From the IMG/VR virus record IMGVR_UViG_3300021376_000006: DNA of 64,000 nt; one strand, written 5' to 3'. Shown here piece by piece: positions 42,878 through 57,033 of the stretch. The notes beneath the pieces were generated by a model, which saw only the letters and a program-made list of their open reading frames with translations, was not told the DNA's origin and ran no database searches. Both the position numbers and the translations under genes were made by a program. Position 1 is the first letter of the stretch. Every line of letters begins with the position of its first letter. This DNA is from a virus (lineage: Duplodnaviria; Caudoviricetes).

Positions 42878-43038
42878 CTAAGTGCAAAAAATGCTGCTTG
42901 GTCCGAGCATTCGAATCGGAACTCGTACATGTTGGCTGGAAAAGTGTGCTGGATCTGATAACCACCCGTGCCAAAATGTTCACTGGCCCAAAGTATGGCA
43001 TCATATGCTTTGCTGTGCGGTATAAGAATTTTAGTCAT
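42868..43038 (-). CDS. Small protein, F-x-L-x-W family (56 aa, not in ORF track)
   Basis: MTKILIPHSKAY...AAFFALRWM. Confidence 0.7.
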   Translation of the reverse strand: MTKILIPHSKAYDAILWASEHFGTGGYQIQHTFPANMYEFRFECSDQAAFFALRWM

Positions 43039-43960: not shown

Positions 43961-44037
43961 TGGTTGCAGGAGTCAGATTCGAACTGACGATCTCCAGGTT
44001 ATGAGCCTAGCGGGATGACCATCTTCCCTATCCTGCG
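43961..44037 (-). tRNA. tRNA-fMet(CAT), initiator-like
   Basis: C1:A72 mismatch, loop CT-CAT-AA, encoded CCA. Confidence 0.9.
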
Positions 44038-44067
44038 ATTGTTCTGTTGAATGTTATCCTCCCAGAT

Positions 44068-44164
44068 GTCCGTAGATTGAACGCAGCGTCCCGCGTCCCG
44101 CGTCCTTCACTGGTAAATTCCAGCTATACCGTTTTGCTCGTTGCCTTGCAACATAGGGCCGGAC
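44068..44164 (-). ncRNA. Candidate multibranch ncRNA
   Basis: GTCCG/CGGAC closure; GTTGC/GCAAC and CTGG/CCAG hairpins; GGACGC x3. Confidence 0.4.
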
Positions 44165-44174
44165 TATTCTTTAT

Positions 44175-44252
44175 TTACTTGAAACGCTTTAACAGTTGCC
44201 GAAACTTCCACTTGATATAATAGGGTATTTCACGCAAGGGGATTGCAAACAT
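44175..44252 (-). CDS. 25-aa peptide
   Basis: MFAIPLREIPYYIKWKFRQLLKRFK; AGGAG SD; TGATG coupling. Confidence 0.55.
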   Translation of the reverse strand: MFAIPLREIPYYIKWKFRQLLKRFK

Positions 44253-44434
44253 CACACGCTCCTGTTTAAACGAAAAGTAATATATTCATCATAGCTAATA
44301 GCTATCCAACCAAACAATGCTGTCACGTTAGCATAAAAAGCCGACATATTGTCTGACCCATATGCAGCCGTACCGTTAACAATAGATAACACAACTACCA
44401 AAAAAGGAATACCTACTCGAAAATATTTGATCAT
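44252..44434 (-). CDS. Small two-TM protein
   Basis: 60 aa; AGGAG SD. Confidence 0.65.
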   Translation of the reverse strand: MIKYFRVGIPFLVVVLSIVNGTAAYGSDNMSAFYANVTALFGWIAISYDEYITFRLNRSV

Positions 44435-44460
44435 GCTACACTCCTATAAAACGAAAAGCT

Positions 44461-44534
44461 TGGCTCCGGTGGAGAGAATCGAACCCCCACTAACGGTTTT
44501 GGAGACCGCCGCACTGCCATTATACTACACCGGA
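44461..44534 (-). tRNA. tRNA-Trp(CCA)
   Basis: Cloverleaf, loop CT-CCA-AA. Confidence 0.92.
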
Positions 44535-44539
44535 ACTGA

Positions 44540-44797
44540 TTACTCAGGGTCCTTGACTACATTACTCAACATTGTTTCTCTACGTTCTTGCATCTCTCGA
44601 ACTTTTGCTTCAGTTTCGAGTTGACCAAGATTGATACTATAAACTACCCATACCATCCAGGCAACGAAAGCAAGTATAAACAAATTGAAAAGTGTTTCTG
44701 CATCTAGTTGAAACAACCCTACAACTGCCAACGGTACCAGTGTTGCAACAGCAAACATTCCGGCGGTACGACCAATTGCACGAACTCGAATATTCAT
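44540..44797 (-). CDS. Small two-TM protein
   Basis: 85 aa; TTGACA-17-TAAAAT upstream. Confidence 0.7.
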   Translation of the reverse strand: MNIRVRAIGRTAGMFAVATLVPLAVVGLFQLDAETLFNLFILAFVAWMVWVVYSINLGQLETEAKVREMQERRETMLSNVVKDPE

Positions 44798-44865
44798 TTT
44801 AACTCCTACTTAGTTAATATACTTTATATTTTACATGAACTTGCATTTTGTGTCAACAATTAGTT

Positions 44866-44955
44866 TGGCGGAAGCGGTGAGATTCGAACTCACGGATCCT
44901 TTCGGATCGTCTGTTTTCAAGACAGGTGCAATAAACCGTACTCTGCCACACTTCC
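44866..44955 (-). tRNA. tRNA-Ser(TGA)
   Basis: Long variable arm, loop CT-TGA-AA. Confidence 0.92.
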
Positions 44956-44962
44956 TTTAAAC

Positions 44963-45040
44963 TGGAGCACTGGGCTGGATTCGAACCAGCGGATCGAGAG
45001 TTTTGCAGACTCCGCCATTGGGCCACTCTGGTACCAGTGC
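44963..45040 (-). tRNA. tRNA-Cys(GCA)
   Basis: Loop CT-GCA-AA, U73. Confidence 0.9.
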
Positions 45041-45043
45041 ATA

Positions 45044-45343
45044 TTAATCTTCTTCTGAATCTTCGTCGTCAAACTCTCCGGTGTTGTGAGCATAACCTCG
45101 TAGAGTGCCTATAACTAGTTCTTGGTCATTTACTACAAAAACATTGTATTCATCTCGACGAAACGGTTTCATTTTAGGTACCAACCGCCTTCCTGCTGTG
45201 TCGGACTTTACTGGTTCTACTTTAACGCTATACGAATTTTCAAATACTTGGATAATTCGACCCAAAATTATTCTGTTGTTATGACAAGTAATAACTGTGG
45301 AACCTACTTCAATTGGCGTACCCAATATGTCATTCAAATTCAC
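45044..45343 (-). CDS. Small hypothetical protein
   Basis: GTG start after GAGGAG; acidic tail. Confidence 0.65.
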   Translation of the reverse strand: MNLNDILGTPIEVGSTVITCHNNRIILGRIIQVFENSYSVKVEPVKSDTAGRRLVPKMKPFRRDEYNVFVVNDQELVIGTLRGYAHNTGEFDDEDSEED

Positions 45344-45399
45344 AGTTGTCTCCTCAAATAAAACAACATTGTAACATAACAGTTGAATTTTGGTCAATC

Positions 45400-45474
45400 T
45401 GGTCCGGCGTGCAGGAATCGAACCCACATTAAGGGAGTAGAAATCCCCTGTATTATCCATTATACTAACGCCAG
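45400..45474 (-). tRNA. tRNA-Arg(TCT)
   Basis: Loop TT-TCT-AC. Confidence 0.9.
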
Positions 45475-45481
45475 TATAACT

Positions 45482-45558
45482 TGGTGGGCCGGGTGAGACT
45501 CGAACTCACTGTCCCCCGATTATGAGTCGGACGCTTATACCAATTAAGCTTCCGGCCC
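45482..45558 (-). tRNA. tRNA-Ile2(CAT, lysidine type) or Met
   Basis: CGA-CTCATAA-TCG anticodon arm; C4/C5 acceptor as in TilS substrates. Confidence 0.8.
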
Positions 45559-45564
45559 TGAAAC

Positions 45565-45650
45565 TGGTACCCGGGACCGGACTCGAACCGGTACGCCCTT
45601 TCGAACATCAAATTTTAAGTCTGAGGTGTCTACCATTCCACCACCCGGGC
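45565..45650 (-). tRNA. tRNA-Leu(TAA)
   Basis: Long variable arm, loop CT-TAA-AA. Confidence 0.92.
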
Positions 45651-45659
45651 ATTATAACT

Positions 45660-45736
45660 TGGTCGGAGTAGTAGGATTCAAACCTACGACCTTCCGCTCC
45701 CAAAGCGGATGCACTATCAGGCTGTGCTATACTCCG
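45660..45736 (-). tRNA. tRNA-Pro(TGG)
   Basis: CGGAGTA acceptor, loop TT-TGG-GA. Confidence 0.92.
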
Positions 45737-45966
45737 TTGTCTTCATCATCTTCATTTGAATTGATATAATCAATTACCCTACTGCGAGCTTCCGCTTCGG
45801 TCAAAGCCGGCAGCGTTATTGTTGCTACGCAATTTTTTATTCGAATGTCAAAAGGCACAACACCAGTAGGTAACCAACCTTCCTCCACAGGCACACTTAC
45901 GGTAAACTCCCGCAAGTTCATTAGCCTGTTGATTGTCTGTTCAGTTAGATCGCTAAATTGTGCCAT
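45727..45966 (-). CDS. Small hypothetical protein; TAG stop inside tRNA-Pro
   Basis: MAQFSDL after AAAGGA. Confidence 0.65.
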   Translation of the reverse strand: MAQFSDLTEQTINRLMNLREFTVSVPVEEGWLPTGVVPFDIRIKNCVATITLPALTEAEARSRVIDYINSNEDDEDNGV

Positions 45967-45977
45967 AATATATCCTT

Positions 45978-46060
45978 TGGTGCTGGAGGTGAGACTCGAA
46001 CTCACGGAGGTTTCCCGACGGCTTACAAAACCGTTGCAATTGCCGCTATGCGACTCCAGC
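45978..46060 (-). tRNA. tRNA(TGT), Thr anticodon on a class II (long variable arm) body
   Basis: ACGGT-TTTGTAA-GCCGT; 12-nt variable arm; GCT acceptor start. Confidence 0.8.
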
Positions 46061-46069
46061 ATTAACACT

Positions 46070-46163
46070 TGGCGAAGAGTATTGGATTCGAACCAATGAT
46101 CCGGCTTTTGACCAGATGCCTTCTTAGCAGGAAGGTGCCTTCGACCAACTCGGCCAACTCTCC
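46070..46163 (-). tRNA. tRNA-Ser(GCT)
   Basis: Long variable arm, G73, loop CT-GCT-AA. Confidence 0.92.
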
Positions 46164-46205
46164 ATTTGTTACTATTATATAGTTGAGCAATGGTCCTGTC
46201 AACAG

Positions 46206-46808
46206 TTACATCACAGGACCATTACCGTTCCGAAAGCCTATTGTACCACCTTCTGCTGTAATACGCTTGATCACATCTTCAAACAAGATAGGTGCAAAGT
46301 CTGTTTGTTCTACACAGACACAATGGTAGCGAGGATCAATACGCTCTCTGACTCCCCACTCCATAAATTCGGCTGTGCTACTGGCTCGCTGCATTACACG
46401 ATTGGCATGTAAGTGCCCGTGTATGTTAGTACCAAAACGACCCAAGCTATCTTCGTGAATGGGAATATGGCTCAGTATCATTCCGTTCATCACATGGTAT
46501 GCTCTGAGTTCACGGAAGTACTGTCTATATTCGTCATCGCGGAAGATGTCGTGATTGCCTCTTATAAGCACCTTGTCGCCGTTAAGACGTGCAAGTGTGC
46601 CAAGGCTTCGACGATTGATAACCACATCACCCAGGTGATATACTTTGTCGTTTGGTCGAACACGTTCGTTCCAGGCCTTGACCATAAACTCGTCCATTTC
46701 TGCAGGATCATCCCACGGACGCAGTTTGGTTACACCGTCATTACGCATGAAACGGCAAACGCCAGCATGCCCGAAGTGTGTGTCCGATACTAAAAATACT
46801 GCTGGCAT
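46206..46808 (-). CDS. Calcineurin-like metallophosphoesterase
   Basis: SDTHFGH, HLGDV, RGNHD, SHIP, HGHLH. Confidence 0.9.
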   Translation of the reverse strand: MPAVFLVSDTHFGHAGVCRFMRNDGVTKLRPWDDPAEMDEFMVKAWNERVRPNDKVYHLGDVVINRRSLGTLARLNGDKVLIRGNHDIFRDDEYRQYFRELRAYHVMNGMILSHIPIHEDSLGRFGTNIHGHLHANRVMQRASSTAEFMEWGVRERIDPRYHCVCVEQTDFAPILFEDVIKRITAEGGTIGFRNGNGPVM

Positions 46809-46822
46809 TGTATTCTCCTTAA

Positions 46823-46990
46823 TTATTTGTTAGCAGGTGTTAGCCTATCAGCATGCACCCAAGTATACCAGTTGAGGCCTAACACTCCAATCTTGACATA
46901 TTTTAGTCTTTTGCGTAGCACTTCCCCACGCAGAAATCCGTGAACACGATGCTTAAACAAAACCTGTTCACCTTTGTTATAAATTCTCAT
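46823..46990 (-). CDS. Small basic protein (55 aa, not in ORF track)
   Basis: MRIYNKGEQVLFK...WVHADRLTPANK; AAAGGA SD. Confidence 0.65.
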   Translation of the reverse strand: MRIYNKGEQVLFKHRVHGFLRGEVLRKRLKYVKIGVLGLNWYTWVHADRLTPANK

Positions 46991-47002
46991 AAAATTTCCT
47001 TT

Positions 47003-47308
47003 CTATGCTACGAGCCACTCTTGTTTATCTCTATACTCGATGGATTCTGCTCCATCATACTCATGTATTTGAAATTCAGTACCTTGATCGATCCATTTAA
47101 TCACCAAATCGTCAAGGTCTCCAAAATACTCGTTAGGATATTTTAGTGCAAGATAATGTTCTATCTTGTCTATTTCCTCAGATTCGAGCCATTCGATTAT
47201 ACTAGGATCAAATAGTAATTCTTCGATCTGGTGCCACGAATACCACCCGGCTCCGTGCTCAGGGCTAAAAAGAACTGCTACTTTACCGTCGCGAACAAGT
47301 TTATTCAT
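47003..47308 (-). CDS. Conserved phage hypothetical protein
   Basis: GKVAVLFSP..GAGWYSW..EYDGAE. Confidence 0.75.
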   Translation of the reverse strand: MNKLVRDGKVAVLFSPEHGAGWYSWHQIEELLFDPSIIEWLESEEIDKIEHYLALKYPNEYFGDLDDLVIKWIDQGTEFQIHEYDGAESIEYRDKQEWLVA

Positions 47309-47334
47309 TTTATCTCAACAATAGTAACTAACAA

Positions 47335-47500
47335 GGACCGTCGTTAGTTGAGTTTAGGGTCCGCCATTTCCATCCTGCGCTTTTCCTTGCCGGGATGCCA
47401 TGGTCAAGCTGCGGCTCTCTAACGCCGAGGGCTTGCCGTCTGCCCTCACTCACTGTCGCTAGTGTCACAGGGCACTATAGAGTCAGCCTGTGCTCTGACT
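47335..47500 (-). ncRNA. Candidate structured ncRNA
   Basis: GC-rich intergenic; hairpins AGTCAG/CTGACT, GAGGGC/GCCCTC, CATCC/GGATG, GGACC/GGTCC. Confidence 0.5.
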
Positions 47501-47663
47501 ATGCTAGTTCTTCGTCCTCATCAAGGAAGAACTCATTGATGTGAGCCATGTCTGCTACATCATCCTCACTCATATACTTCAGGCAAGCCATAATAACAGT
47601 ATCACGATCTAAAAGACCGTCTTCAATCATGTCTAATAGTCGGTTAGTACATTGACGAGTCAT
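47499..47663 (-). CDS. Small hypothetical protein
   Basis: MTRQCTNRLLDMIEDG; AAGGAG SD. Confidence 0.75.
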   Translation of the reverse strand: MTRQCTNRLLDMIEDGLLDRDTVIMACLKYMSEDDVADMAHINEFFLDEDEELA

Positions 47664-47673
47664 TGTTATCTCC

Positions 47674-47988
47674 TTAGATAAATTGTAATTCTCTAGCCGG
47701 GTAATCAATGCGGCCATCAAACTCTAACTGATCACGCTCGAATTCAGTAAGGTAGTCATCGGCTACAATGTTAAAGTCAACAATGTGCTCACGGAAGTAC
47801 ACGCTGTCTTCTGCAATCTGGTCACGCAAAGCCATCACAGCCATAGTAACATCTTTACCTCGAAAATTCCGGACCACGTAATCGTTGCCGCCTTTGGACT
47901 TCCAATACTCAGGACACTCACCGGTACCGTCCCACGCATGGGCGCCATAGTTTTCGTAAACTTGGGTGGTGATTAGCAGCTTAGACAT
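47674..47988 (-). CDS. Conserved phage hypothetical protein
   Basis: MSKLLITTQVYENYG..YWKSKGG; AAGGAG SD. Confidence 0.75.
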   Translation of the reverse strand: MSKLLITTQVYENYGAHAWDGTGECPEYWKSKGGNDYVVRNFRGKDVTMAVMALRDQIAEDSVYFREHIVDFNIVADDYLTEFERDQLEFDGRIDYPARELQFI

Positions 47989-48118
47989 TTTGGCTCCTTG
48001 TTCTTCACTATACACATATTATAGCAAAATGGGCCATTATGGTCTACCAAAATAAAATGTTACAAGAATAGCAACACTTGTTGCTAGAATAATAATGTTG
48101 CTTTAGGGCAACAGAACG

Positions 48119-48192
48119 TGGAGCGGAGTAGGAGAATCGAACTCCTCGCTTTAGCTTGGAAGGCTAAGGTATTACCACTATACGAACTCCGC
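48119..48192 (-). tRNA. tRNA-Gly(TCC)
   Basis: Loop CT-TCC-AA, U73. Confidence 0.92.
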
Positions 48193-48246
48193 AAATAATA
48201 GATACACAAAATTACAGTTTATAAATAAAATTACTTATTTTTATAT

Positions 48247-49026
48247 ATGCATACGGTCAATCATCAATTGTTTCAAAATTTTGATCATCTAGTAGATATC
48301 AAATCGCTAATAAAACTGAAACCTCTAGTTTCAGCTTTTATTGCCAAAAACTTTCAATACATTATACCAACAAAATTTGCTGCATGGTCATTTCCGCCGT
48401 CGCATCAGCACAAACAAGGTATAGCTGACGCTAACGCCAAATATATTAAAAATCTCAACGGTTTTAGCAGCCATTTGCAAAGTGTAATACAAAATCTAGC
48501 AGATACAGACTGCCTTGGATCTTTTTGCCTATTTGAAGAAGATGTAGTTTTATCTTCATTTAGTTTTAATGTGAGATACAACCTGCAAGGACTGCCTAAT
48601 AAACACCTTGCATCTTGCGTCGCTAAAAGATCGATTGACAGTGACTTTGATTTTTTTTACAACTGGTTAGATAATCAAAACATTTTTCAAGAATACGGTA
48701 GAGTGGTCTTTTTTATCAACTATCCCGGATCAAATCAGGTACCGCATTATGATCCTATTGACGATACACGTGACAATCAACCGGACGAATTTATATTAAT
48801 TAACTTCAATCCCAATCGTAAAAGATTATACTTGTTAGATGACACAAACAATAAAAAATACTATTCATATGGCTATGTAAATTGGTTCAATACTAACAAT
48901 TTCCATGGCGCAGACACTGTAGAATATGCATGTTACACGCTACGAATTGATGGCACTTTTTCCGATCAATTCAGACAAAAGTTTATGGCGGTCCCAAGGG
49001 GTAACGATCCCCTTCTTCAAGCGTGA
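48247..49026 (+). CDS. 2OG-Fe(II) oxygenase-like protein
   Basis: VPHYD..FHGAD..LRIDG (HxD..H..R). Confidence 0.65.
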   Translation: MHTVNHQLFQNFDHLVDIKSLIKLKPLVSAFIAKNFQYIIPTKFAAWSFPPSHQHKQGIADANAKYIKNLNGFSSHLQSVIQNLADTDCLGSFCLFEEDVVLSSFSFNVRYNLQGLPNKHLASCVAKRSIDSDFDFFYNWLDNQNIFQEYGRVVFFINYPGSNQVPHYDPIDDTRDNQPDEFILINFNPNRKRLYLLDDTNNKKYYSYGYVNWFNTNNFHGADTVEYACYTLRIDGTFSDQFRQKFMAVPRGNDPLLQA

Positions 49027-49060
49027 CAGGCTTGTGTGCGTCCATGAACACTTTGAGACC
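48986..49060 (-). tRNA. tRNA-Asp(GTC), atypical T-loop
   Basis: Loop CT-GTC-AC, G73, T-loop ATCGTTA. Confidence 0.85.
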
Positions 49061-49065
49061 TTGCA

Positions 49066-49142
49066 TGGCTGTCCAGGTAGGGATCGAACCTACGACACGG
49101 TGATTAACAGTCACCTGCTACTACCAACTGAGCTACTGGACA
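49066..49142 (-). tRNA. tRNA-Asn(GTT)
   Basis: Loop CT-GTT-AA, G73. Confidence 0.92.
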
Positions 49143-49149
49143 ATAAAAC

Positions 49150-49225
49150 TGGTAGGAGGTGACGGGGTCGAACCGGCGACATCGGCCTTGTAAGGGCCGC
49201 GCTCTACCAACTGAGCTAACCTCCC
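49150..49225 (-). tRNA. tRNA-Val(TAC)
   Basis: Loop CT-TAC-AA. Confidence 0.92.
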
Positions 49226-49227
49226 AA

Positions 49228-49512
49228 TTAAATATATCTATCAATATGTAGGCCTACAGCACTTGCTCGTTGAACCAATCTTTGTTCTCTAATACTTTCG
49301 CCAAATGCATACTGCCTTAAAAATTCTGTTTGTTTATTGTAGTCATAATTTCTTTGCAATCTTGCGGCTTCTTGTAAAGCTAACAAATTAGCCATTTCTC
49401 GCACTTTTTGCTCTTCGTTGTCCCTACGTTTATAATCATTGAGAACTTGAACACGCTGACCTATCATTTGATAGTCGTTTAAGTAAGCATGTGGTACACG
49501 ATATATAACCAT
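49228..49512 (-). CDS. Small coiled-coil protein
   Basis: 94 aa; start uncertain. Confidence 0.6.
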   Translation of the reverse strand: MVIYRVPHAYLNDYQMIGQRVQVLNDYKRRDNEEQKVREMANLLALQEAARLQRNYDYNKQTEFLRQYAFGESIREQRLVQRASAVGLHIDRYI

Positions 49513-49520
49513 AATTTATA

Positions 49521-50390
49521 CTATAATTTACCTAAATTCACATTTGCAAAATCAAATGTGACTCTGTTCAATACTCGTTTGTTCATGCCTTCAAATTTCC
49601 AACGTTTATGAATACCCAACCACTGTTCGGCAATGACCACATCACCATCTTGCCAGTCGTGATGGTATATATATTTTTCTTGCAACACATGATCTCTTAG
49701 CGATTCTACAAGCTCACGACTTTGATCTTGTGTCATGCCAACAAAATTTCTAAATTGTAAAAAAGGAAAAAATAGTCCAGTTTGTTTACCTATATTGGTG
49801 TAGACCAGGTTAGGAGTGTAATGTTCATTAAAGTTTTCAGTAACCCCTGCTGCTTTACCAAAATCAAAATCACTGTAAGTGCCTTTTTTCCACCCACATA
49901 CCATCTTTAAATCTTTAATTTTATCAATCATTTGGTCATTAAGATCTTTGTAGGCCAAAATATTATTGGTCCAGCTGGTTCTTGAGCCGAACGTGGACTT
50001 GATACCACGCAACCATACCAATGGTTTACGATCGGGTTGAGCGGGTTGATTACAATGCCAGTCTAAATCGTCTACGTGTCCAAACAGTCCCGGTTCGCCA
50101 TGTTCATCAAGCTCACCTGTAACTCTTACCACTTTATAGTTAGTATCTTGAATAATTACATTTTTAAAAGGCGCTATGTCCTTAAGCGGAGTGAGGTCTT
50201 CTAACTCACCAAATCTACTGCATATATTTGCTTCATCTTGCGCTGTAAGATGATTTTGATTTTTGCATACCACTAAGGTATTTGTTGCCAACCAACGGGC
50301 AATTTGATTAATATCCGAATCTGACGCAGTTAAAAAATCAAAGTCATCTAAAATTACAGTCCATCCATTGTCATGTATTTTGTGTTTCAT
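49521..50390 (-). CDS. TauD/TfdA-family dioxygenase
   Basis: LDWHCN, T.W.N, HDWQDGDVVI..GIHKR. Confidence 0.8.
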   Translation of the reverse strand: MKHKIHDNGWTVILDDFDFLTASDSDINQIARWLATNTLVVCKNQNHLTAQDEANICSRFGELEDLTPLKDIAPFKNVIIQDTNYKVVRVTGELDEHGEPGLFGHVDDLDWHCNQPAQPDRKPLVWLRGIKSTFGSRTSWTNNILAYKDLNDQMIDKIKDLKMVCGWKKGTYSDFDFGKAAGVTENFNEHYTPNLVYTNIGKQTGLFFPFLQFRNFVGMTQDQSRELVESLRDHVLQEKYIYHHDWQDGDVVIAEQWLGIHKRWKFEGMNKRVLNRVTFDFANVNLGKL

Positions 50391-50403
50391 AGTTTATCCA
50401 TAA

Positions 50404-50490
50404 TGGTGGGTGCTGATGGTAACGCTCCACGTGCCTTGACTTCCGTACCTTTAGCAATGGTTTTACAGACCACCGTACGGGGCAACACCC
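50404..50490 (-). tRNA. Atypical tRNA-Tyr(GTA)-like RNA (8/4 fold, vestigial D-arm)
   Basis: GGGTGTTG/CAGCACCC-A-CCA; TGGT-CTGTAAA-ACCA; T-arm GTGG-AGCGTTA-CCAT. Confidence 0.65.
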
Positions 50491-50499
50491 ATTTAACAT

Positions 50500-50575
50500 T
50501 GGTGGAGATGACAGGACTCGAACCCGCTACCTATTGCTTGCAAAGCAACCGCTCTCCCAGCTGAGCTACATCCCC
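50500..50575 (-). tRNA. tRNA-Ala(TGC)
   Basis: G3:U70, loop TT-TGC-AA. Confidence 0.93.
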
Positions 50576-52083
50576 AATATATATTTTCTACATTCTTCAA
50601 GTTCGGGTATATAATCACCCAACTTGCTGTTTCTTGCATGATCTAAAGCATCATTATACAAGAAAAAGTTTTTAAGTGCAACCAAATCGCACTCGGGTTT
50701 TTTGCTGTAATAATCGTATAATGAATCTATGGCTGTCTTATTTGATTTGCCATCTGTGTAATACGTTTTGGTTTGTTGACACTTGTTCATAGATTCAACT
50801 ACCATGTCATGATTGGGATGATTATACGCAGACTGAAAACCCACATGATTGATTTGCAAATAAATTCCAGCATGTGGAAATTCTTGGTCCAAGAATTCAA
50901 ATAACAAATGCAAATTTGTCACATTGTATATTCCTGGAACACAATTAATAGAAATAGTATGTCCATGTGATTCCAACAATTTGGTATTAGCAATCACAGT
51001 ATCCCAATCAGTACCCCAACGCCAATAATCATTGACTTGACCGTAGCCATCTAAACTGACACTGAAATTTAAATTTGTAAAGTGATTGGCCAAGGTCAAA
51101 AACTTTTTAGAAATTTTCACTGCATTTGTGCCCAAAGTAAAATCAAAATCAGTTTTACCTGCGTCAATACATTTCTGCATAAATTCATACACTTCGGGTA
51201 TTACAGTAGGTTCGCCTCCAGTAAGATATACTCTAACTTTTGGATTTAGAGTTTCTATGTCAATTCTGTCTAATTTGGAATACTTAAAGGTTTGCTCGCC
51301 TGGAAAAACTATATTAAATTTTTTAAATTCTCTATCAATCAAATGACTGTGTTCAGGTCTGCAACCGCGGCACATGATGTTACACTTGTTGCTCAATCTA
51401 ATTTCATAATAATACGGCTGTGTAATCTTCTCTAAATCTTCATAGGAATTTATATCCAGTTTTGCCAACCATTCTTTGGTTTCAAACTGCCTATAGCTTT
51501 CAATATTTTTGTCTTCGTAATAATAACAAGTCTCACAATTACTTTCTAATCTTTCTCCGCGAAGCATCTTTTCGCGCACTGCGACAAAATTAGGATCAGA
51601 TTTCCAATCAGTAAATTTGTCCCATGTGGTTACATGATCTCGCCCTCTTGAGCAGGTCAACATATAACCACTCTCTTCGGTAATTGCTATCCAAGGATAG
51701 ATACAAAAACTTTTGTTGTTTTCTATGCTGTTGAAAAATTCTAAAAAGTTTTTGACATTTTTGTTATTTCTAAAACTGGTATTATGACCCAATTTTTCTA
51801 ATTCCAACATAACCTTGTATGAAGATAGCAGCGGCTTCCAATGTGGCCATTGTTGTTTGGGTTGATCTAACAACACAATCAAATCAAATTGTTTTGCAAC
51901 GCTGACGATTTGTCCAAAAGACAAATCTAAAATACTGGTATGATAATACCCAGGTTCGGTTATTAAATCGTCGCTGGCGATCAGCCCGTTGTTTATACAC
52001 TTGTTTTGTTTGGCTAGAATTGTAGTTTTTTTATCTGTGTCATCAGAGTTAGTTCCGATGCACAATATTTTTTGATCAAACAT
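50566..52083 (-). CDS. Radical SAM protein with SPASM/twitch-like domain; TAG stop inside tRNA-Ala
   Basis: CNIMCRGC, TGGEP, SLDG; CIYPW..C..CETC. Confidence 0.85.
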   Translation of the reverse strand: MFDQKILCIGTNSDDTDKKTTILAKQNKCINNGLIASDDLITEPGYYHTSILDLSFGQIVSVAKQFDLIVLLDQPKQQWPHWKPLLSSYKVMLELEKLGHNTSFRNNKNVKNFLEFFNSIENNKSFCIYPWIAITEESGYMLTCSRGRDHVTTWDKFTDWKSDPNFVAVREKMLRGERLESNCETCYYYEDKNIESYRQFETKEWLAKLDINSYEDLEKITQPYYYEIRLSNKCNIMCRGCRPEHSHLIDREFKKFNIVFPGEQTFKYSKLDRIDIETLNPKVRVYLTGGEPTVIPEVYEFMQKCIDAGKTDFDFTLGTNAVKISKKFLTLANHFTNLNFSVSLDGYGQVNDYWRWGTDWDTVIANTKLLESHGHTISINCVPGIYNVTNLHLLFEFLDQEFPHAGIYLQINHVGFQSAYNHPNHDMVVESMNKCQQTKTYYTDGKSNKTAIDSLYDYYSKKPECDLVALKNFFLYNDALDHARNSKLGDYIPELEECRKYILGM

Positions 52084-52331
52084 TAATTTCCTAAATCTTT
52101 CGCATCAACACAAGTTCCGCCTTTAAAAACATATATGTCGGAATCTATGCGTATTTGTTCGAACACATGATTGTTTACACAGATATATGGATCCTTATGA
52201 TTTTCCATATAATAAAACGCACCATATCCTATACCCGCTAATACCATTAGTACGGGGATATATTTTAAATACTTCACAACTTCAGGCATAGCGCCTAAAA
52301 TTTGTGGCAAAAATTTGAGCAGGTCTTTCAT
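52083..52331 (-). CDS. Small membrane protein
   Basis: MKDLLKFLPQ; TAAATA 5 nt upstream. Confidence 0.7.
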   Translation of the reverse strand: MKDLLKFLPQILGAMPEVVKYLKYIPVLMVLAGIGYGAFYYMENHKDPYICVNNHVFEQIRIDSDIYVFKGGTCVDAKDLGN

Positions 52332-52343
52332 GCTAGTATTTAT

Positions 52344-52419
52344 TGGCACACCCAACCGGATTCGAACCGGTGTCGCCGCCGTGAAAGGGCGATGTCCTAG
52401 GCCTCTAGACGATGGGTGC
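52344..52419 (-). tRNA. tRNA-Glu(TTC)
   Basis: Loop CT-TTC-AC, G73. Confidence 0.92.
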
Positions 52420-52421
52420 CT

Positions 52422-52583
52422 TTATTTTACTGCTCTACATTCTACTTGGATACGACTGTTTACTGCTCGTAATCTACGATCCCATGCCTGAGCAGATTCT
52501 GAAGATTTTTGCTGGGTGGCAAATTTTTCGTACACGGTAAAGTTTTCAGGGACTTGTATCCAGAATGCCAATATCCAAGGCAT
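52422..52583 (-). CDS. Small protein (53 aa)
   Basis: MPWILAFWIQVP after AGGAG. Confidence 0.65.
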   Translation of the reverse strand: MPWILAFWIQVPENFTVYEKFATQQKSSESAQAWDRRLRAVNSRIQVECRAVK

Positions 52584-52598
52584 AACAATCTCCTGTGA

Positions 52599-52673
52599 TG
52601 GTGCCTCTGGATGGAATCGAACCACCATCACAAGTTTCGTAGACTCGTATCCTATCCGTTGAACGACAGAGGC
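52599..52673 (-). tRNA. tRNA-Arg(ACG)
   Basis: Loop CT-ACG-AA. Confidence 0.92.
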
Positions 52674-52679
52674 TGTATA

Positions 52680-52830
52680 TTAGTAAGTGCTATAGGACCA
52701 ATTTAGACGTCCGGTGCTTCCGTGTCATAGCGTACAGTCGGTTATATCAGGACCTGTCCCACGCCGGTTAGGCCCGCATAGTGGCAGCGTCCTGCCACGA
52801 TACCCGCTTTTCATCTATAACACTTACTAA
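52680..52830 (-). ncRNA. Candidate 151-nt ncRNA closed by a 16-bp stem
   Basis: TTAGTAAGTGTTATAG/CTATAGCACTTACTAA; inner GTGGCAG-GACG-CTGCCAC. Confidence 0.6.
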
Positions 52831-52835
52831 TATAT

Positions 52836-53027
52836 GCTTAGGCCACGCTTTTCCACGGTCGCCCCCAAGCTGGAGTTGTTGCCCTGTCCTTCCTGTTTAT
52901 TCTTCTGTCTGTGTGCAGTTAGGATTATGCCTATCAGAGTCTGAGGGCTTGCCTCGCTAACGGTCTTCTGCCACCGGATCTCTCTCGCTAATCAAACGCC
53001 ACTTTCAGGAAAGTGGTAACCGGAACC
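52836..53027 (-). ncRNA. Candidate ~190-nt ncRNA
   Basis: No ORF; CCACTTT/AAAGTGG, GAGG/CCTC, GCTTGGG/CCTAAGC stems. Confidence 0.5.
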
Positions 53028-53171
53028 TTAACGAGCCCAAACAAGTGCAAACGCAACTGCTAGTCCGTTGTTAGCAAATCTATAAGTATCGCCTGAATCA
53101 AAATAATCATTGCCGCAGCGATATCCGTGATCCGAAAACCATTTTACAATAGCTTTATCTCTTTCTAACAT
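53028..53171 (-). CDS. Small protein, F-x-L-x-W family (47 aa)
   Basis: MLERDKAIVKWF...AVAFALVWAR. Confidence 0.65.
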   Translation of the reverse strand: MLERDKAIVKWFSDHGYRCGNDYFDSGDTYRFANNGLAVAFALVWAR

Positions 53172-53186
53172 TTTGTCGCGAACTTT

Positions 53187-53291
53187 TTATCTTGGAGCAC
53201 CAAATTCTGCTTCTTCTGCTTCCTTGACTAGATCAGCAAAAAATGGTTCACGATCTAACAAAACATTCAAATGAGGATATACTTGTTTCAC
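53187..53291 (-). CDS. 34-aa peptide
   Basis: GTG start after AAGGAG; MKQVYPHLNVLLDREPFF... Confidence 0.6.
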   Translation of the reverse strand: MKQVYPHLNVLLDREPFFADLVKEAEEAEFGAPR

Positions 53292-53346
53292 GTGTACTCC
53301 TTGATCTACTATACGCAACTTTTATGAAACCGGAAATCAAATGCTA

Positions 53347-53400
53347 ACAAGGAATTGCCTGTTACATGATACCGAAGGCAGTGCTGTATCAAACCCTTGC
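53347..53400 (-). ncRNA. Candidate pseudoknotted RNA element
   Basis: TGATAC/GTATCA stem; loop TGCCT pairs with downstream AGGCA. Confidence 0.4.
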
Positions 53401-53450
53401 TTAACTCTATACAGAGACAGAACGCACATTTTCTGTTTTATAAACTGATT

Positions 53451-53550
53451 ATTTGTTAGTTGGTGCCCCTCAGTATCACCACCTTCCTAGGTTCCCGTGC
53501 GGGCTAGTTTGAGGTCAGTTATGTCTCACGAACAAGGTCGAATAACAAAT
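53451..53550 (-). ncRNA. Candidate structured RNA with internal GGGGCACCA
   Basis: ATTTGTTA/TAACAAAT, CCTCA/TGAGG, CTAG/CTAG, CCCG/CGGG. Confidence 0.4.
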
Positions 53551-53590
53551 AAAATTGTATAGTAGCACACTACTTCTTTTTGGTCTACCA

Positions 53591-53670
53591 TATTGAAACA
53601 CACTACCCTAGACAGCTACTTTGGGGCGGGCTGGCCGATACCGGGACACCGCTCGAAGTGTGCTTTAATA
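53591..53670 (-). ncRNA. Stem-closed small RNA cassette
   Basis: AAGCACACT/AGTGTGTTT closure around a GC-rich core. Confidence 0.45.
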
Positions 53671-53751
53671 TGGTGCCCCAGGACGGACTCGAACCGTCAC
53701 CCGAAGACTGGCTTCTAAGACCAGCGTGTCTACCAGTTCCACCACCGGGGC
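53671..53751 (-). tRNA. tRNA-Leu(TAG)
   Basis: Class II, loop CT-TAG-AA. Confidence 0.92.
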
Positions 53752-53845
53752 ATTTGTTGTTAAATTTTTAATGATCGTTTACTGCACTATTTCATTATTA
53801 TACTTAATTGTTCTTTTTTGGTCAACTGTTTTATTATTGTTGCAC

Positions 53846-53866
53846 AAATAGCAACTGTTGCTATTT
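53846..53866. promoter_or_regulatory. Perfect 10-1-10 DNA palindrome (candidate operator)
   Basis: AAATAGCAAC-T-GTTGCTATTT upstream of TTGACC..TATAAT. Confidence 0.45.
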
Positions 53867-53873
53867 TGTTAAC

Positions 53874-53948
53874 TGGTAGAAGCGGAGAGAGTTGAACCCG
53901 CACTGTACACCGTATGAAGGTGCTGCACTACCGTTATGCTACGCTTCC
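53874..53948 (-). tRNA. tRNA-Met(CAT), probable elongator
   Basis: Loop TT-CAT-AC; weak T-stem. Confidence 0.75.
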
Positions 53949-53949
53949 G

Positions 53950-54023
53950 TGATACCCGGAGGTGGGAACGATCCACTGTCGGTCGATTATCAATCGACTG
54001 CTCTACCACTGAGATATCCGGGT
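53950..54023 (-). tRNA. tRNA-Ile(GAT), atypical T-loop, 3' TCA instead of CCA
   Basis: Loop TT-GAT-AA; T-loop ATCGTTC. Confidence 0.8.
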
Positions 54024-54033
54024 ATACAAACTT

Positions 54034-54108
54034 TGGCCGGTCCTGACAGATTCGAACTGCCGACAGCTGGTTTCGAAGACCAGAACTCTTCCACTGAGCT
54101 AAGGACCG
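54034..54108 (-). tRNA. tRNA-Arg(TCG)
   Basis: Loop CT-TCG-AA. Confidence 0.9.
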
Positions 54109-54875
54109 TATAAAAAATTGTTTACTCGTGCTGCAATATTTTTTTGAGTATTTTTCTTTGGTTCTGCTAACTCTGCGCCAAAATCAAGATTACGGTCATC
54201 AACTGTGTAAGTTTTGCGTAAATCTGTACAATCAATGTATTCATTAAGAAAATTCTCAAACTCAACATGATTGTTTTCACGGCACTGCCCAAATCTCACA
54301 ACAGCATAATCAATATTGTAGTTCTTTAATATTTTAATCAACAACTTAAAACTACGTCTATGAAACCGTGCATGCCACTTTCTGTCACGCAAAAAAGTTT
54401 TTTGCAGTGTTTCTTGTCTCAGTTTTTCTAGTGTTGGGTCTGAATTTGTCACGGTCAATGATTCAAAGTGATGTTTACGTCCTTGATACATTACAGAATA
54501 CGATAAGTGTGAAAATTCATAATCTGTAACTAATACTAAATCAGGCCTATTGTTAATTCTTAACCAATTAATCAATCTTCTACAATGACCAAAAAAATGT
54601 GCGCCGTTAAAAGATAAATTTGTTACATACCCGTTTATCATACTAGGCCAAGCCAATGACATTTCTTTGTGACGTACAAATTTCCATGCTTTAGATTCAA
54701 GAGAATCCAAATGTCCAACAAAATCATTTTGTTTTAAGCACCATTGTAGTGCAGGTTTAATTTGTTTATGATATCTTAAACTGAAAGTTCTAGGTTGTGT
54801 GTCGCCCATAATTTCATCAGACAAACAGTTATTGCCATTACTTTGGCAATCACCTAGTATCAAAATAGTTTTCAT
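54099..54875 (-). CDS. SGNH/GDSL-like hypothetical protein; TAG stop inside tRNA-Arg
   Basis: ILILGDCQSNG N-terminus. Confidence 0.6.
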   Translation of the reverse strand: MKTILILGDCQSNGNNCLSDEIMGDTQPRTFSLRYHKQIKPALQWCLKQNDFVGHLDSLESKAWKFVRHKEMSLAWPSMINGYVTNLSFNGAHFFGHCRRLINWLRINNRPDLVLVTDYEFSHLSYSVMYQGRKHHFESLTVTNSDPTLEKLRQETLQKTFLRDRKWHARFHRRSFKLLIKILKNYNIDYAVVRFGQCRENNHVEFENFLNEYIDCTDLRKTYTVDDRNLDFGAELAEPKKNTQKNIAARVNNFLYGP

Positions 54876-54921
54876 GATTGAATATTTATAGAAATGTTAA
54901 ATTGCGCCAATAAATATCATC

Positions 54922-55437
54922 ATGTATTACACCAAAGTTCATATTGATAATCTTGAACAACTTCAACAATCAATATTAGATAAATTACCACCAGAAGCAC
55001 TGACTACTCATGGAGTTCTGCCAATGTGGTCTCAGCAGCTGATGCAGTTTGATGAGATAAAAAACATTATTCAAGAACTTGGTCTTGAATCTACTGCTTA
55101 CTGCGTTTGTATTGTCACAATGCAGCCTTGGTCAGAATTTCCAGTCCACATAGACAGCGGAAAAAGCCAGGCAGCGTTAAACATTCCTTTAGCAAATTGC
55201 AATAATACATTTACTCATTGGTACCAAAGTACACAGCCATTGATAGAATATCAACATCACGGTGATGGCAAATATTTAGGTGCTGATAAAAATCTATGCA
55301 CCAGAGTTGCTAGTTTAGAAATGACTGAACCTCATTTTATCAATATTGGTGCTTTACATAATGTTGATAACCCTAATAACAGTTGGCGTATACTTTTATC
55401 AATACGTCTTACCGATTACAACTTTAATTCACAATAA
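54922..55437 (+). CDS. 2OG-Fe(II)/Asp-hydroxylase-like oxygenase
   Basis: PVHID..LNIP..LHNV..RILLSI. Confidence 0.7.
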   Translation: MYYTKVHIDNLEQLQQSILDKLPPEALTTHGVLPMWSQQLMQFDEIKNIIQELGLESTAYCVCIVTMQPWSEFPVHIDSGKSQAALNIPLANCNNTFTHWYQSTQPLIEYQHHGDGKYLGADKNLCTRVASLEMTEPHFINIGALHNVDNPNNSWRILLSIRLTDYNFNSQ

Positions 55438-55442
55438 TTTTG

Positions 55443-55518
55443 TGGTGCCAACTCTTGGGATCGAACCAGGTTCCATGCGTCTTCAGCGCACCGCAATGAC
55501 CACATTTGCTAAGTTGGC
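55443..55518 (-). tRNA. tRNA-Phe(GAA)
   Basis: Loop CT-GAA-GA. Confidence 0.92.
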
Positions 55519-55519
55519 T

Positions 55520-55594
55520 TGGGGTATCCGACCGGGATCGAACCGGTAATACAAGATCCACAATCTTGGGTGTTACCTCTACACTACGGACACC
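55520..55594 (-). tRNA. tRNA-His(GTG)
   Basis: G-1:C73, loop TT-GTG-GA. Confidence 0.92.
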
Positions 55595-55600
55595 ATTTAA

Positions 55601-55675
55601 TGGTAGGGGATGAGGGATTCGAACCCCCGAATGACGGAATCAAAATCCGCTGTCTTACCACTTGACGAATCCCCA
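55601..55675 (-). tRNA. tRNA-Gln(TTG)
   Basis: Loop TT-TTG-AT; U1:U72 mismatch. Confidence 0.88.
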
Positions 55676-55676
55676 A

Positions 55677-55826
55677 TTAACTTGGTATTACTTTTGGAAT
55701 GTATGGTACGTTCCTGGGCCCATGGCGCTGTTCAAACAACACGCGAGCTTCTTGCAAATCCTTTGCGTACACACGATCTTTAGTGTCACCTTGCGGTGTT
55801 CTTACTGTAGTTTCATACATTGGCAT
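55677..55826 (-). CDS. Small protein (49 aa)
   Basis: MPMYETTVRTPQG after AAGGAG. Confidence 0.7.
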   Translation of the reverse strand: MPMYETTVRTPQGDTKDRVYAKDLQEARVLFEQRHGPRNVPYIPKVIPS

Positions 55827-55923
55827 ATCAATCTCCTTCAATCATATAGAAACACACTCAATACTATTATACGCCTGTGCCGTTTGAGTAAGCCATTAAT
55901 GTATAAGCGAATTTGTTTTCGTA

Positions 55924-55998
55924 TGGTAGGGGCACCAGGACTCGAACCTGGATAGATCGGTTAAAAGCCGACTATTCTAGCCTTTGAATTATACCCCC
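55924..55998 (-). tRNA. tRNA-Lys(TTT)
   Basis: Loop CT-TTT-AA. Confidence 0.92.
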
Positions 55999-56048
55999 AT
56001 TCTTACACCGTACAGTTGCCACATCATCGCTGCGAGCCGATGCTTGTT

Positions 56049-56105
56049 TTAAAATGTATAACCGTATCTTAATAAACCTATCTTATCACTCTTGTCACTA
56101 TCCAT
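56049..56105 (-). CDS. 18-aa micropeptide
   Basis: MDSDKSDKIGLLRYGYTF; AGGAG SD. Confidence 0.45.
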   Translation of the reverse strand: MDSDKSDKIGLLRYGYTF

Positions 56106-56207
56106 AACAGGATCTCCTATTTAAAATTTCTTTCTAACCACACCAACATACCAATAATGAATAATAATACAGTCACAGCCCCATTTTAGTCAACCTTTCA
56201 TAGTTAG

Positions 56208-56281
56208 TGGAGCGGGTAGCGAGAATCGAACTCGCAAATAATCCTTGGCAAGGATTCAGGTTACCTTTACATCATACCCGC
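56208..56281 (-). tRNA. tRNA-Gly(GCC)
   Basis: Loop TT-GCC-AA, U73. Confidence 0.92.
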
Positions 56282-56287
56282 TCGGTT

Positions 56288-56382
56288 TGGTAGTAGGCCA
56301 GGGATTCGAACCCTGTCGTTCCAGCCCATCTGACCAGTCTCCACGGTTTATAAGTCCGCGCCGCATACCAATGCTGCCTACC
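56288..56382 (-). tRNA. Atypical tRNA(TAT) with tRNA-Sec-like D-arm and long variable arm
   Basis: GCAT-TGGT-ATGC D-arm; loop CT-TAT-AA; CAGGG-TTCGAAT-CCCTG; CCA. Confidence 0.75.
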
Positions 56383-56393
56383 ATAAAAATAGC

Positions 56394-56637
56394 GCATCCT
56401 TGTTCCTAAAATTATTAGGTAGGAATAGTTTACAAGACCTTCTGTTCATCAAGGATGCATGATAAAACACATTCTTGGGTGCCCGTAAAGACCATACCCA
56501 TGGCCTCGAGCGCCATTATGTGTTTGAATGTGCTTTATCATTCCTATTTTACTCCTGCGTTTTCGCCGACAGTTTCATCCAGGGCTCCGCCCGTTTGGCA
56601 AGTTATAGTGTTGCCGCAGCCTCGTTCCGCATCACAC
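56394..56637 (-). ncRNA. Three tandem stem-closed RNA modules (56394-56458, 56460-56540, 56552-56637)
   Basis: GCATCCTTG/CAAGGATGC; TGATAAAGCACATTC/GAATGTGTTTTATCA; GGCAA/TTGCC, GGGC/GCCC. Confidence 0.45.
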
Positions 56638-56639
56638 TT

Positions 56640-56804
56640 TTAGCGTCGTTCAGTTAGACGTCGCATTCGTTCTGCATCTTCATTTTGTTGACGCAGCCTT
56701 TCAATTTTACCTTTAACTAATTGTTCAAGCAATCTATCGTTAAAAACAAAATTACGCTCTTCTAACTTTTTTTGAAACGACACGATTTCTTTTTTGTTCG
56801 TCAT
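56640..56804 (-). CDS. Small helical protein (54 aa), first gene after the attenuator
   Basis: MTNKKEIVSFQKKLEER..; AAAGGA SD. Confidence 0.65.
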   Translation of the reverse strand: MTNKKEIVSFQKKLEERNFVFNDRLLEQLVKGKIERLRQQNEDAERMRRLTERR

Positions 56805-56816
56805 CGGTTCCTTTAT

Positions 56817-56852
56817 AAAACAAAACCCCAGGGTGTGTAGTCCTGGGGTTTT
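56817..56852 (-). terminator. Attenuator terminator hairpin
   Basis: AAAACCCCAGG-loop-CCTGGGGTTTT-GTTTT. Confidence 0.85.
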
Positions 56853-56874
56853 ATAGAATTTGGTTAATTAAAAC

Positions 56875-56997
56875 TTAGGTTCTATAATCCCCCAGGACAC
56901 GATTACTAATATCGCGTGTAATCATACCCCAGTAGGCGGTTAGCCCACATTCGGGTTGTGATATAAACGATTTACATAATAGTGCTGAAATCATCAT
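56875..56997 (-). CDS. Attenuator leader peptide (40 aa)
   Basis: MMISALLCKSFISQPECGLTAYWGMITRDISNRVLGDYRT; last codons form the antiterminator 5' strand. Confidence 0.7.
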   Translation of the reverse strand: MMISALLCKSFISQPECGLTAYWGMITRDISNRVLGDYRT

Positions 56998-57004
56998 AGT
57001 CTCT

Positions 57005-57033
57005 ATACTACATTTATTTATAATTGTTGTCAA
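57005..57033 (-). promoter_or_regulatory. Sigma70 promoter with nested T4-type late box
   Basis: TTGACA-17-TAGTAT; TATAAATA at 57015-57022. Confidence 0.7.

Follow-up and report, generated by a model that had tools for sequence, protein, structure and literature searches.

A putative ribosome-dependent attenuator with an all-amino-acid leader peptide at the head of phage tRNA arrays

Leader-peptide attenuation is a textbook mechanism in which one or a few amino acids are sensed and biosynthetic or synthetase genes are controlled. The element described here is a leader of this general layout that heads a transfer RNA (tRNA) array in a phage. It lies on the minus strand at positions 56,817 to 57,033 of a 64,000-nucleotide stretch of DNA (the window, the whole stretch that was analyzed) from the IMG/VR virus record IMGVR_UViG_3300021376_000006 (Duplodnaviria; Caudoviricetes). 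The element is composed of a promoter, a leader open reading frame (ORF), and three overlapping hairpins, and is followed by a short protein gene (ORF2), structured RNAs, and the tRNA genes. It is read here as a ribosome-dependent leader-peptide transcription attenuator that tests the decoding of every amino acid and gates ORF2, the structured RNAs, and the tRNA array, a reading to which a probability of roughly 70% is assigned. This assessment draws on the architecture of the element, its conservation and covariation, a frame-specific selection for a complete amino-acid set, and its position ahead of tRNA arrays, all of which are seen by sequence comparison.

The closest described systems are the trpL, hisL, leuL, thrL, pheL, and ilv leaders of E. 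coli and Salmonella. Like the phage element, they have a short ORF close to the promoter, a 2:3 antiterminator, and a 3:4 terminator, and their 1:2 hairpin has a candidate counterpart in the phage. In trp/his-type leaders, as proposed for the phage element, a ribosome at the end of the ORF masks region 2 and transcription terminates, a stall further upstream allows read-through, and the products of the downstream genes make up for the shortage. The trp/his-type leaders contain tandem cognate codons, whereas the phage leader contains none and has about one codon per amino acid in a longer ORF (39 to 53 codons). They control biosynthetic enzymes, whereas the phage-borne leader would control tRNA genes and a small protein. 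Also unlike the trp/his type, many members of the phage family appear leaderless, and their naked RNA is predicted to read through and not to super-attenuate. Because it has no run of cognate codons, the phage leader would work like the trp/his class but stands outside the amino-acid-specific class. Four features by which attenuators are recognized are present: a short ORF with a credible start, an intrinsic terminator, a mutually exclusive and conserved antiterminator, and a stop codon at which a ribosome would mask the 5’ arm and leave the terminator free.

Other known leaders resemble the element in part. The pheST genes (pheM leader) and the T-boxes share with its proposed mechanism the sensing of tRNA charging or availability and a decoding component as the output. 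The pheM leader senses only phenylalanine, T-boxes bind one uncharged tRNA without a ribosome, and neither controls tRNA genes, as the phage leader would. A T-box is absent between positions 43000 and 58500 of the window, where no Rfam match besides tRNAs was obtained at E values up to 1. In ermCL-type leaders, in the regulation of mexXY, and at regulated terminators found by Term-seq, slowing of a ribosome on a leader ORF reportedly flips an RNA structure and turns the genes on. The ermCL-type resistance leaders are like the proposed phage switch in that ribosome slowing of whatever cause switches the RNA structure; unlike the phage leader, they are short and respond to drugs or to specific arrest peptides. 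To our knowledge, no resistance-gene leader with a full amino-acid set has been reported. Full-text literature searches returned no account of phage tRNA arrays under attenuator control, nor of all-amino-acid leaders. In mycobacteria, leaderless polycysteine short ORFs act as cysteine-responsive attenuators, according to the abstract of that work (bioRxiv 10.1101/834739). As described there, they share with the phage leader a leaderless short first cistron whose translation sets operon expression. They differ in being chromosomal and in sensing a single amino acid, and the abstract makes no mention of a terminator and antiterminator pair of this kind.

An earlier note on this DNA, referred to here as the original prediction, had described a sigma-70 promoter with a nested element, a leaderless-type ORF of 40 codons, an antiterminator pairing over 17 base pairs, and a strong terminator sharing an arm with that antiterminator. 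Each of these was recovered, and the coordinates are collected in Table 1. The promoter has 10 of 12 matches to the sigma-70 consensus in a promoter scan, and the nested element is inside its spacer. The ATG begins 7 nucleotides past the −10 hexamer and is not preceded by a Shine-Dalgarno (SD) sequence. The transcript is predicted from this spacing to be leaderless, with the 5’ end of the RNA at or a few bases from the AUG. A recount agreed with the 19 kinds of amino acid and 30 kinds of codon that had been claimed, histidine being the missing residue. For the window leader alone, 19 of 20 amino acids is only mildly unusual (P about 0.05–0.1). The significance of the amino-acid set comes from the relatives and not from the window peptide by itself.

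The antiterminator pairing in the window is composed of 9 and 8 base pairs flanking a 2 × 2 internal loop, with a free energy (∆G) of −28 kcal/mol and a z-score of −6.05; none of 200 shuffled sequences was equally stable. Its 5’ arm corresponds to leader codons 34–40, the stop codon lies 3 nucleotides beyond this arm, and the 3’ arm begins 16 nucleotides past the stop. The terminator has an 11-base-pair GC-rich stem and a 9-nucleotide loop with a ∆G of −19.8 kcal/mol (z −4.55). A simple terminator scan overlooked it solely because of the 9-nucleotide loop. The 5’ arm of the terminator lies inside the 3’ arm of the antiterminator, and bases 56852–56840 are common to both structures. The whole 191-nucleotide leader RNA folds as the antiterminator and not as the terminator (z −4.8). 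The upstream hairpin of the original prediction is real and completes the 1:2 part of the layout, but it had been drawn too short, since ACGCGAT/ATCGTGT is weak alone (−6.6 kcal/mol, z −1.8). The longer hairpin, here called H1, has a ∆G of −12.5 kcal/mol (z −2.5), and its 3’ strand shares 5 nucleotides with the antiterminator 5’ arm. Together, the hairpins give the 1:2, 2:3, and 3:4 layout of an attenuator in the window.

The mechanism proposed from this layout is as follows. RNA polymerase would start at or beside the leader AUG. A ribosome that is not delayed would arrive at the last codons or the stop and cover the 5’ arm of the antiterminator, the 3’ arm would then be free, the terminator hairpin would form, and transcription would end at about position 56817. 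If no ribosome is present, or if one is held at any codon ahead of the arm, the antiterminator, as the more stable structure, would form first and capture the 5’ arm of the terminator, and the polymerase would read into ORF2, the RNA modules, and the tRNAs. With about one codon per amino acid and with both codon boxes for serine, leucine, and arginine, a shortage of any charged tRNA would raise read-through, which would constitute negative feedback on tRNA supply. We infer where transcription starts, in which direction and how strongly the switch responds, and likewise the trigger, which would be loss or cleavage of host tRNAs, or starvation.

Relatives were collected at two depths. A peptide search, a look-up of the encoding contigs, and pattern scans gave 23 distinct close copies. 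Searches with the ORF2 family and with the terminator core CCCCAGGAYT..CCTGGGGTTTT gave at least 118 distinct loci. Family membership was defined as an ORF ending 25–34 nucleotides before the terminator and linked to other such ORFs by phmmer. The leader family has at least 91 members among these loci, with 85 distinct peptides of 39–53 amino acids and a median pairwise identity of 27%. About twelve more loci fit the RNA model and have more distant peptides. All members come from uncultured viral and lake contigs.

The family can be sorted into two types by the position of the start codon. In type A, to which the window belongs, the ATG is 6–10 nucleotides past a consensus −10 hexamer and has no SD sequence; the type A relatives keep TTGACA-N17-TACAAT-AGAGACT-ATG almost invariant. 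In type B, the −10 hexamer is 45–60 nucleotides upstream of the ATG, and AAGGA or AAAGAGAAA is present 6–13 nucleotides before it. The type B 5’ untranslated region (UTR), for example at loci L117, L135, and L075, also contains a short conserved hairpin, such as ACAGCAATGGTGCTGT or CATGCGTTAGAGATAGCGCA, between the −10 hexamer and the SD-like stretch. The spacer of the leader promoter (57011–57027 in the window, minus strand) is conserved in relatives as (G/C)(A/T)TAAATAAA, the window having TATAAATA, which is unusual for a sigma-70 spacer. This conserved spacer may hold a second promoter nested in the first, or may be bound by a factor.

The comparison of relatives supports the attenuator interpretation of the original prediction, which had expected homologous leaders ahead of tRNA clusters, poorly conserved peptides, high codon diversity, and covarying helices. 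Same-strand tRNA genes are present within 3 kb downstream at 61 of the 62 loci that have at least 1.5 kb of downstream sequence, and none is on the opposite strand. The first tRNA is located about 185–2100 nucleotides downstream, typically about 440, and up to 24 tRNA genes are present per locus. Upstream, tRNAs occur within 3 kb at only 17 of 65 loci. The peptides are as divergent as had been expected, and the codon diversity and the covariation are described below.

The RNA switch is conserved throughout the family. In 88 of 91 minimum-energy folds of the nascent RNA, the CCCC of the terminator pairs with a G-run in the 3’ end of the ORF, 12–25 nucleotides before the stop. The median ∆G is −23.7 kcal/mol for the antiterminator and −16.7 kcal/mol for the terminator. 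The terminator core is invariant in the family (the same core also served as a search pattern). The family antiterminator is composed of three stacked helices, with the stop codon in or beside the apical helix. The apical helices vary between subgroups yet remain complementary: UAUAGAA/UUCUAUA, UGUAGAG/UUCUACA, GUGUA/UACAC, GAGUUA/UAACUC, and GGUUU/AAACC. Cognate arms pair with −24.4 kcal/mol and swapped arms with −18.8 kcal/mol, a foreign 3’ half costing 5.6 kcal/mol on average.

Covariation was counted in an alignment of 87 loci realigned with a covariance model, which replaced a MAFFT hairpin alignment that had mis-aligned type A against type B. In this structure-fitted alignment, 83.8% of cells pair, compared with at most 51.7% when the partners are slid. 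Twelve of the 16 antiterminator pairs have changed on both sides. Changes on both sides occur in 134 cells; shuffling gave 46.9 ± 6.7 such cells, and the slid controls no more than 58. Each of the three reading frames is used to translate the G-run of the arm in some members (48, 33, and 4), so the run is conserved as RNA. Across the family, H1 has a median z-score of −1.8, and 59% of members are below −1.64.

The leader peptides contain a complete amino-acid set far more often than expected. All 20 amino acids are present in 72 of the 85 distinct peptides, 19 in another 12, and 18 in one. Among the 23 close copies, 16 peptides hold all 20. Random peptides of phage composition are complete in 1% of cases at 40 amino acids, 3% at 46, and 5% at 50, and the composition of the family gives the same values. 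Control ORFs of 39–53 amino acids from the same loci are complete in 2.6% of 1,339 cases, several of these being unrecognized family members. The remaining five frames of the leader DNA contain 16–17.6 kinds of amino acid, are complete in 0–3% of cases, and have 1.3–4.3 stops each. Shuffling of residues within alignment columns gave 10 ± 2.8 complete peptides and never more than 22 in 2000 shuffles, against the 72 observed. When the peptides are clustered at 60% identity, 15 of 17 clusters are predominantly complete. A set that stays complete despite such divergence must be under selection, although the members are related.

The rare residues are not fixed in place. Cysteine is present at 1.14 copies per peptide, spread over 23 alignment columns, and histidine at 1.12 copies, spread over 15. 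What seems to be selected is that a residue is present, not where it stands, which is an unusual signature. In 62 of the 85 peptides, every amino acid has already occurred by the point at which the G-run opens the antiterminator arm. The codons follow a similar pattern, with 34.6 distinct codons per leader in 44.4 codons, compared with 28.7 expected. Both serine boxes are present in 90 of 90 ORFs (expected 70–81), both leucine boxes in 82 (expected 63–64), and both arginine boxes in 79 (expected 54); AUY and AUA are both present in 82 (expected 47–55), and GGY and GGR in 83 (expected 61–63). This excess suggests that the unit under selection is the tRNA species.

We infer that the leader is translated in vivo. 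This is supported by the frame-specific signal described above, by the ORF being open and free of stop codons in all 91 collected members, by the size of its indels, and by an SD-like stretch that is present only where there is a 5’ UTR. Two independent indels in the leader ORF of the close copies are both 3 nucleotides long, and the 75 nucleotides past the stop hold at least eight indels, mostly of 1 nucleotide.

Among the alternatives, the one that survives best is that the leader ORF encodes a functional small peptide, an arrest peptide or a trans-acting micro-protein, ahead of a leaky terminator. The antiterminator would then do no more than link translation of the ORF to termination, with no sensing of tRNA. 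Leader peptides acting in trans are known, such as peTrpL (PMC7298713). The phage ORF is clearly maintained and very probably translated, and conserved residues exist, namely a W and an N-D-R-T-P-E or T-R-D-I-S-N-R stretch. These motifs coincide with H1 and with the antiterminator arm, the G-run of which is translated in a different frame in different members. In type B, for example, the peptide motif YW..NDRTPE coincides with an H1-equivalent hairpin, UGG...GCGAUUA / UGAUCGC...CCA, just 5’ of the antiterminator. The low median identity of the peptides counts against the alternative, as does the pattern of substitution, since variant codons in the close copies comprise 14 synonymous and 37 non-synonymous changes, which is no excess of synonymous change given that 23% is expected at random. 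Ordinary protein function also leaves unexplained the roughly one shifting cysteine and histidine per peptide and the 85% of complete sets. This alternative is considered unlikely.

The close copies bear as well on the alternative that the terminator is set by a protein, an uncharged tRNA, or a small ligand bound at H1, in the manner of a riboswitch, a T-box, or TRAP/PyrR, with the ORF being secondary. The stretch from promoter to terminator is much better conserved among the 23 copies than are the flanks and ORF2. Nucleotide diversity in the leader is 0.07–0.11 at all three codon positions, as low as in the non-coding hairpins, compared with 0.21, 0.11, and 0.28 in ORF2. No pair is altered on both sides in these copies, the cores of the antiterminator arms are invariant, and the loop is variable. 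The lack of compensatory pairs and of a synonymous excess first hinted at a purely RNA-level element, and the wider family settled this. Two pairs of amino-acid swaps among the close relatives (K9I with I12K, and Q14L with L19Q) were set aside because the events are too few and one could be an RNA pair. A structured H1 directly 5’ of the expression platform would suit a ligand. An aptamer, however, needs neither an ORF that is always open, nor an SD sequence that depends on a UTR, nor frame-specific completeness, nor in-frame indels. Sequence conservation is poor over the N-terminal half of the leader, and no Rfam family, T-box included, matches the leader at E values up to 1. Control by a ligand is therefore judged improbable.

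Equally improbable is a translation-coupled on/off terminator that serves timing or insulation, in which leaderless transcripts end, untranslated read-through from upstream continues, and no individual tRNA is sensed. The default of the naked RNA to antitermination would fit such a device, and so would type A, where an internal AUG lacking an SD sequence would go untranslated on a longer upstream transcript. Internal promoters also feed much of the array in any case. In type B, by contrast, members with an SD sequence would be translated on any transcript. The selection for 20 amino acids and for both codon boxes would have no explanation, nor would the finding that 62 of 85 peptides are complete before the arm begins. 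A non-coding small RNA gene of about 180 nucleotides with a fortuitous ORF, which would account for the element having its own promoter and terminator, for its strong nucleotide conservation, and for its significant fold (z −4.8), has a very small chance of being correct, given a terminator pre-empted by a more stable upstream hairpin (odd for a dedicated terminator of a small RNA), an ORF2 behind it that has no promoter of its own, and the evidence for the leader ORF from in-frame indels, start signals, and frame-specific completeness.

Several points weigh against the attenuator reading. The first group concerns control of the array. Further promoters downstream, a caveat that the original prediction had itself raised, are present both in the window and in relatives. 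Consensus promoters lie inside the window array at 56193 (56193–56164), 53825, 46202, and 44856, and at 22 of 77 loci, compared with 6 in shuffled sequence, the first tRNA is separated from the terminator by a consensus promoter. Internal promoters imply that part of the tRNA output is independent of the switch. The second group concerns the RNA. Metatranscriptome contigs of relatives stop short of the leader, and both the start site and termination at 56817 are predictions. The basis of the leaderless start is promoter spacing only, and in some type A members the ATG is 9–10 nucleotides past the −10 hexamer, which would give a 5’ UTR of 2–3 nucleotides. The outer 2 base pairs of the antiterminator and the pair beside the internal loop vary without compensation in close relatives, and the alignment used to count covariation was fitted to the structure by the covariance model. 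The third group concerns the amino-acid set. The members are related by descent, so the counts are not independent trials. The window leader has no histidine, yet the array has a tRNA-His. Residues within about four codons of the arm, often including the only glutamate, may escape sensing.

Should the attenuator reading be correct, the element, which is placed ahead of tRNA arrays in about 90 phage contigs, would sense decoding capacity in general. It would represent transcriptional feedback control of tRNA genes, a kind of control that was not found in the full-text literature searches. It would also account for the regulation of tRNA arrays in large phages and would tie these arrays to host defenses that target tRNA. 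A wider role can be proposed, in which the phage senses the whole tRNA pool and any shortage of charged tRNA, caused for example by host anticodon nucleases or tRNA degradation, switches on the tRNA array and the small protein. The leader would then be a counter-defense circuit that replaces decoding capacity on demand, a role that is given about an even chance. As a part of about 190 nucleotides, the leader would be portable and would report translation stress at any codon.

Table 1. Features of the attenuator and of the region downstream, in window coordinates.
Feature	Position	Strand	Description
Sigma-70-type promoter	57005..57033	-	TTGACA 57033-57028, 17-nucleotide spacer, TAGTAT 57010-57005
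TATAAATA nested in promoter spacer	57022-57015	-	Conserved TAAATAAA element
Leader ORF, 40 codons + TAA	56875..56997	-	ATGATG at 56997; stop 56877-56875
Leader peptide	56875..56997	-	MMISALLCKSFISQPECGLTAYWGMITRDISNRVLGDYRT
Hairpin H1 (region 1:2; candidate pause or protector hairpin)	56894..56930	-	GGGGUAUGAUUAC 56930-56918 with GUAAUCGUGUCCU 56906-56894
Antiterminator hairpin (2:3)	56840..56898	-	5’ arm GTCCTGGGG-GA-TTATAGAA 56898-56880; 3’ arm TTCTATAA-AA-CCCCAGGAC 56858-56840
Intrinsic terminator (3:4)	56817..56852	-	AAAACCCCAGG / CCTGGGGTTTT; stem 56852-56842 with 56832-56822; T-tract to 56817
ORF2, 54 amino acids, helical, charged	56640..56804	-	Clear coding signature
Conserved structured RNA region	about 56390-56640	-	After ORF2
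tRNA-like gene, 93 nucleotides	56291-56383	-	Long variable arm, encoded CCA end
tRNA-Gly(GCC)	56208-56281	-	Then 25 more tRNA genes down to 43961
Terminator closing the tRNA region	43586-43567	-	AAACGGGCCAGTGCCCGTTT + T-run

The first gene behind the terminator in the window is ORF2. Its GGA ribosome-binding site starts about 6 nucleotides past the T-tract of the terminator. This leaves no room for a promoter of its own, which implies that ORF2 is expressed only by read-through. Members of the ORF2 family, which are helical proteins of 49–62 amino acids, are encoded right behind the terminator at 56 loci, and 224 homologues were found in metagenomes. The core in relatives resembles L-[TS]-x-E-Q-x-x-K-L-I-x-D-K-x-E-R-A-R. 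The family has no match in Pfam, PHROG, or the Atlas. At other loci, the conserved RNA module or tRNAs are directly behind the terminator, without ORF2. The switch would certainly gate ORF2 and the first RNAs, and it would add to later tRNA transcription without being its sole determinant. The ORF2 protein may be its tightest target. The first transcription unit runs from ORF2 through the structured RNA region and the tRNA-like gene to tRNA-Gly(GCC), ahead of the consensus promoter at 56193–56164.

The 26 tRNA genes of the window (43961–56281, minus strand) serve 19 amino acids, and a tRNA-Tyr is not among them. Type B relatives often have tRNA-Tyr(GTA) as the gene that comes first past the attenuator. 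The 93-nucleotide tRNA-like gene was missed by ARAGORN in the window and scores 32 bits on the Rfam tRNA-Sec model (gathering score 47). Its counterpart in relatives, 92–95 nucleotides long, is called tRNA-Ile(UAU) by ARAGORN and is the first tRNA-like gene past the attenuator in type A loci. In the structured RNA region (56390–56640), a helix around GGAACGAGG covaries between relatives (GCGG..CUGC versus AGGG..CCCU); the region has no Rfam match. Metatranscriptome contigs of relatives cover positions 56208–56782, which include tRNA-Gly, the tRNA-like gene, the RNA modules, and a relative’s ORF2. Six metatranscriptome runs contain small shares of the 901-nucleotide stretch that was queried, and a query with the leader alone gave only runs with fewer than 5 words or a share of 0.12, which speaks neither for nor against its transcription or termination. 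The terminator at the far end of the tRNA region is the only strong one on the minus strand found by the simple scan of the scanned stretch. It is immediately followed by a promoter with 11 of 12 consensus matches (43562–43534).

Neither type A nor type B leaders were found in GenBank phages by blastn or megablast, type A giving tRNA matches only. The exact 31-nucleotide terminator of the window had no match in a scan of viral contigs, and a 17-nucleotide leader core was present in two contigs only. No member of the leader family was found among 185,579 bacterial and archaeal species, each represented by a single genome. The terminator pattern matches 40 scattered and unrelated genomes, but none of them has an ORF of the leader family upstream, so these matches give no clue to the host. 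In viral contigs L129, L146, L118, and L127, which lack a leader ORF, the terminator sequence AAAAACCCCAGGAYTCAAC(A/C)CC(C)TGGGGTTTTT likewise stands at the end of ordinary protein genes; this implies that the terminator is reused widely in these phages. The window also encodes PolIII alpha, PstS, and radical-SAM genes, and many metagenome runs from lake water contain its DNA.

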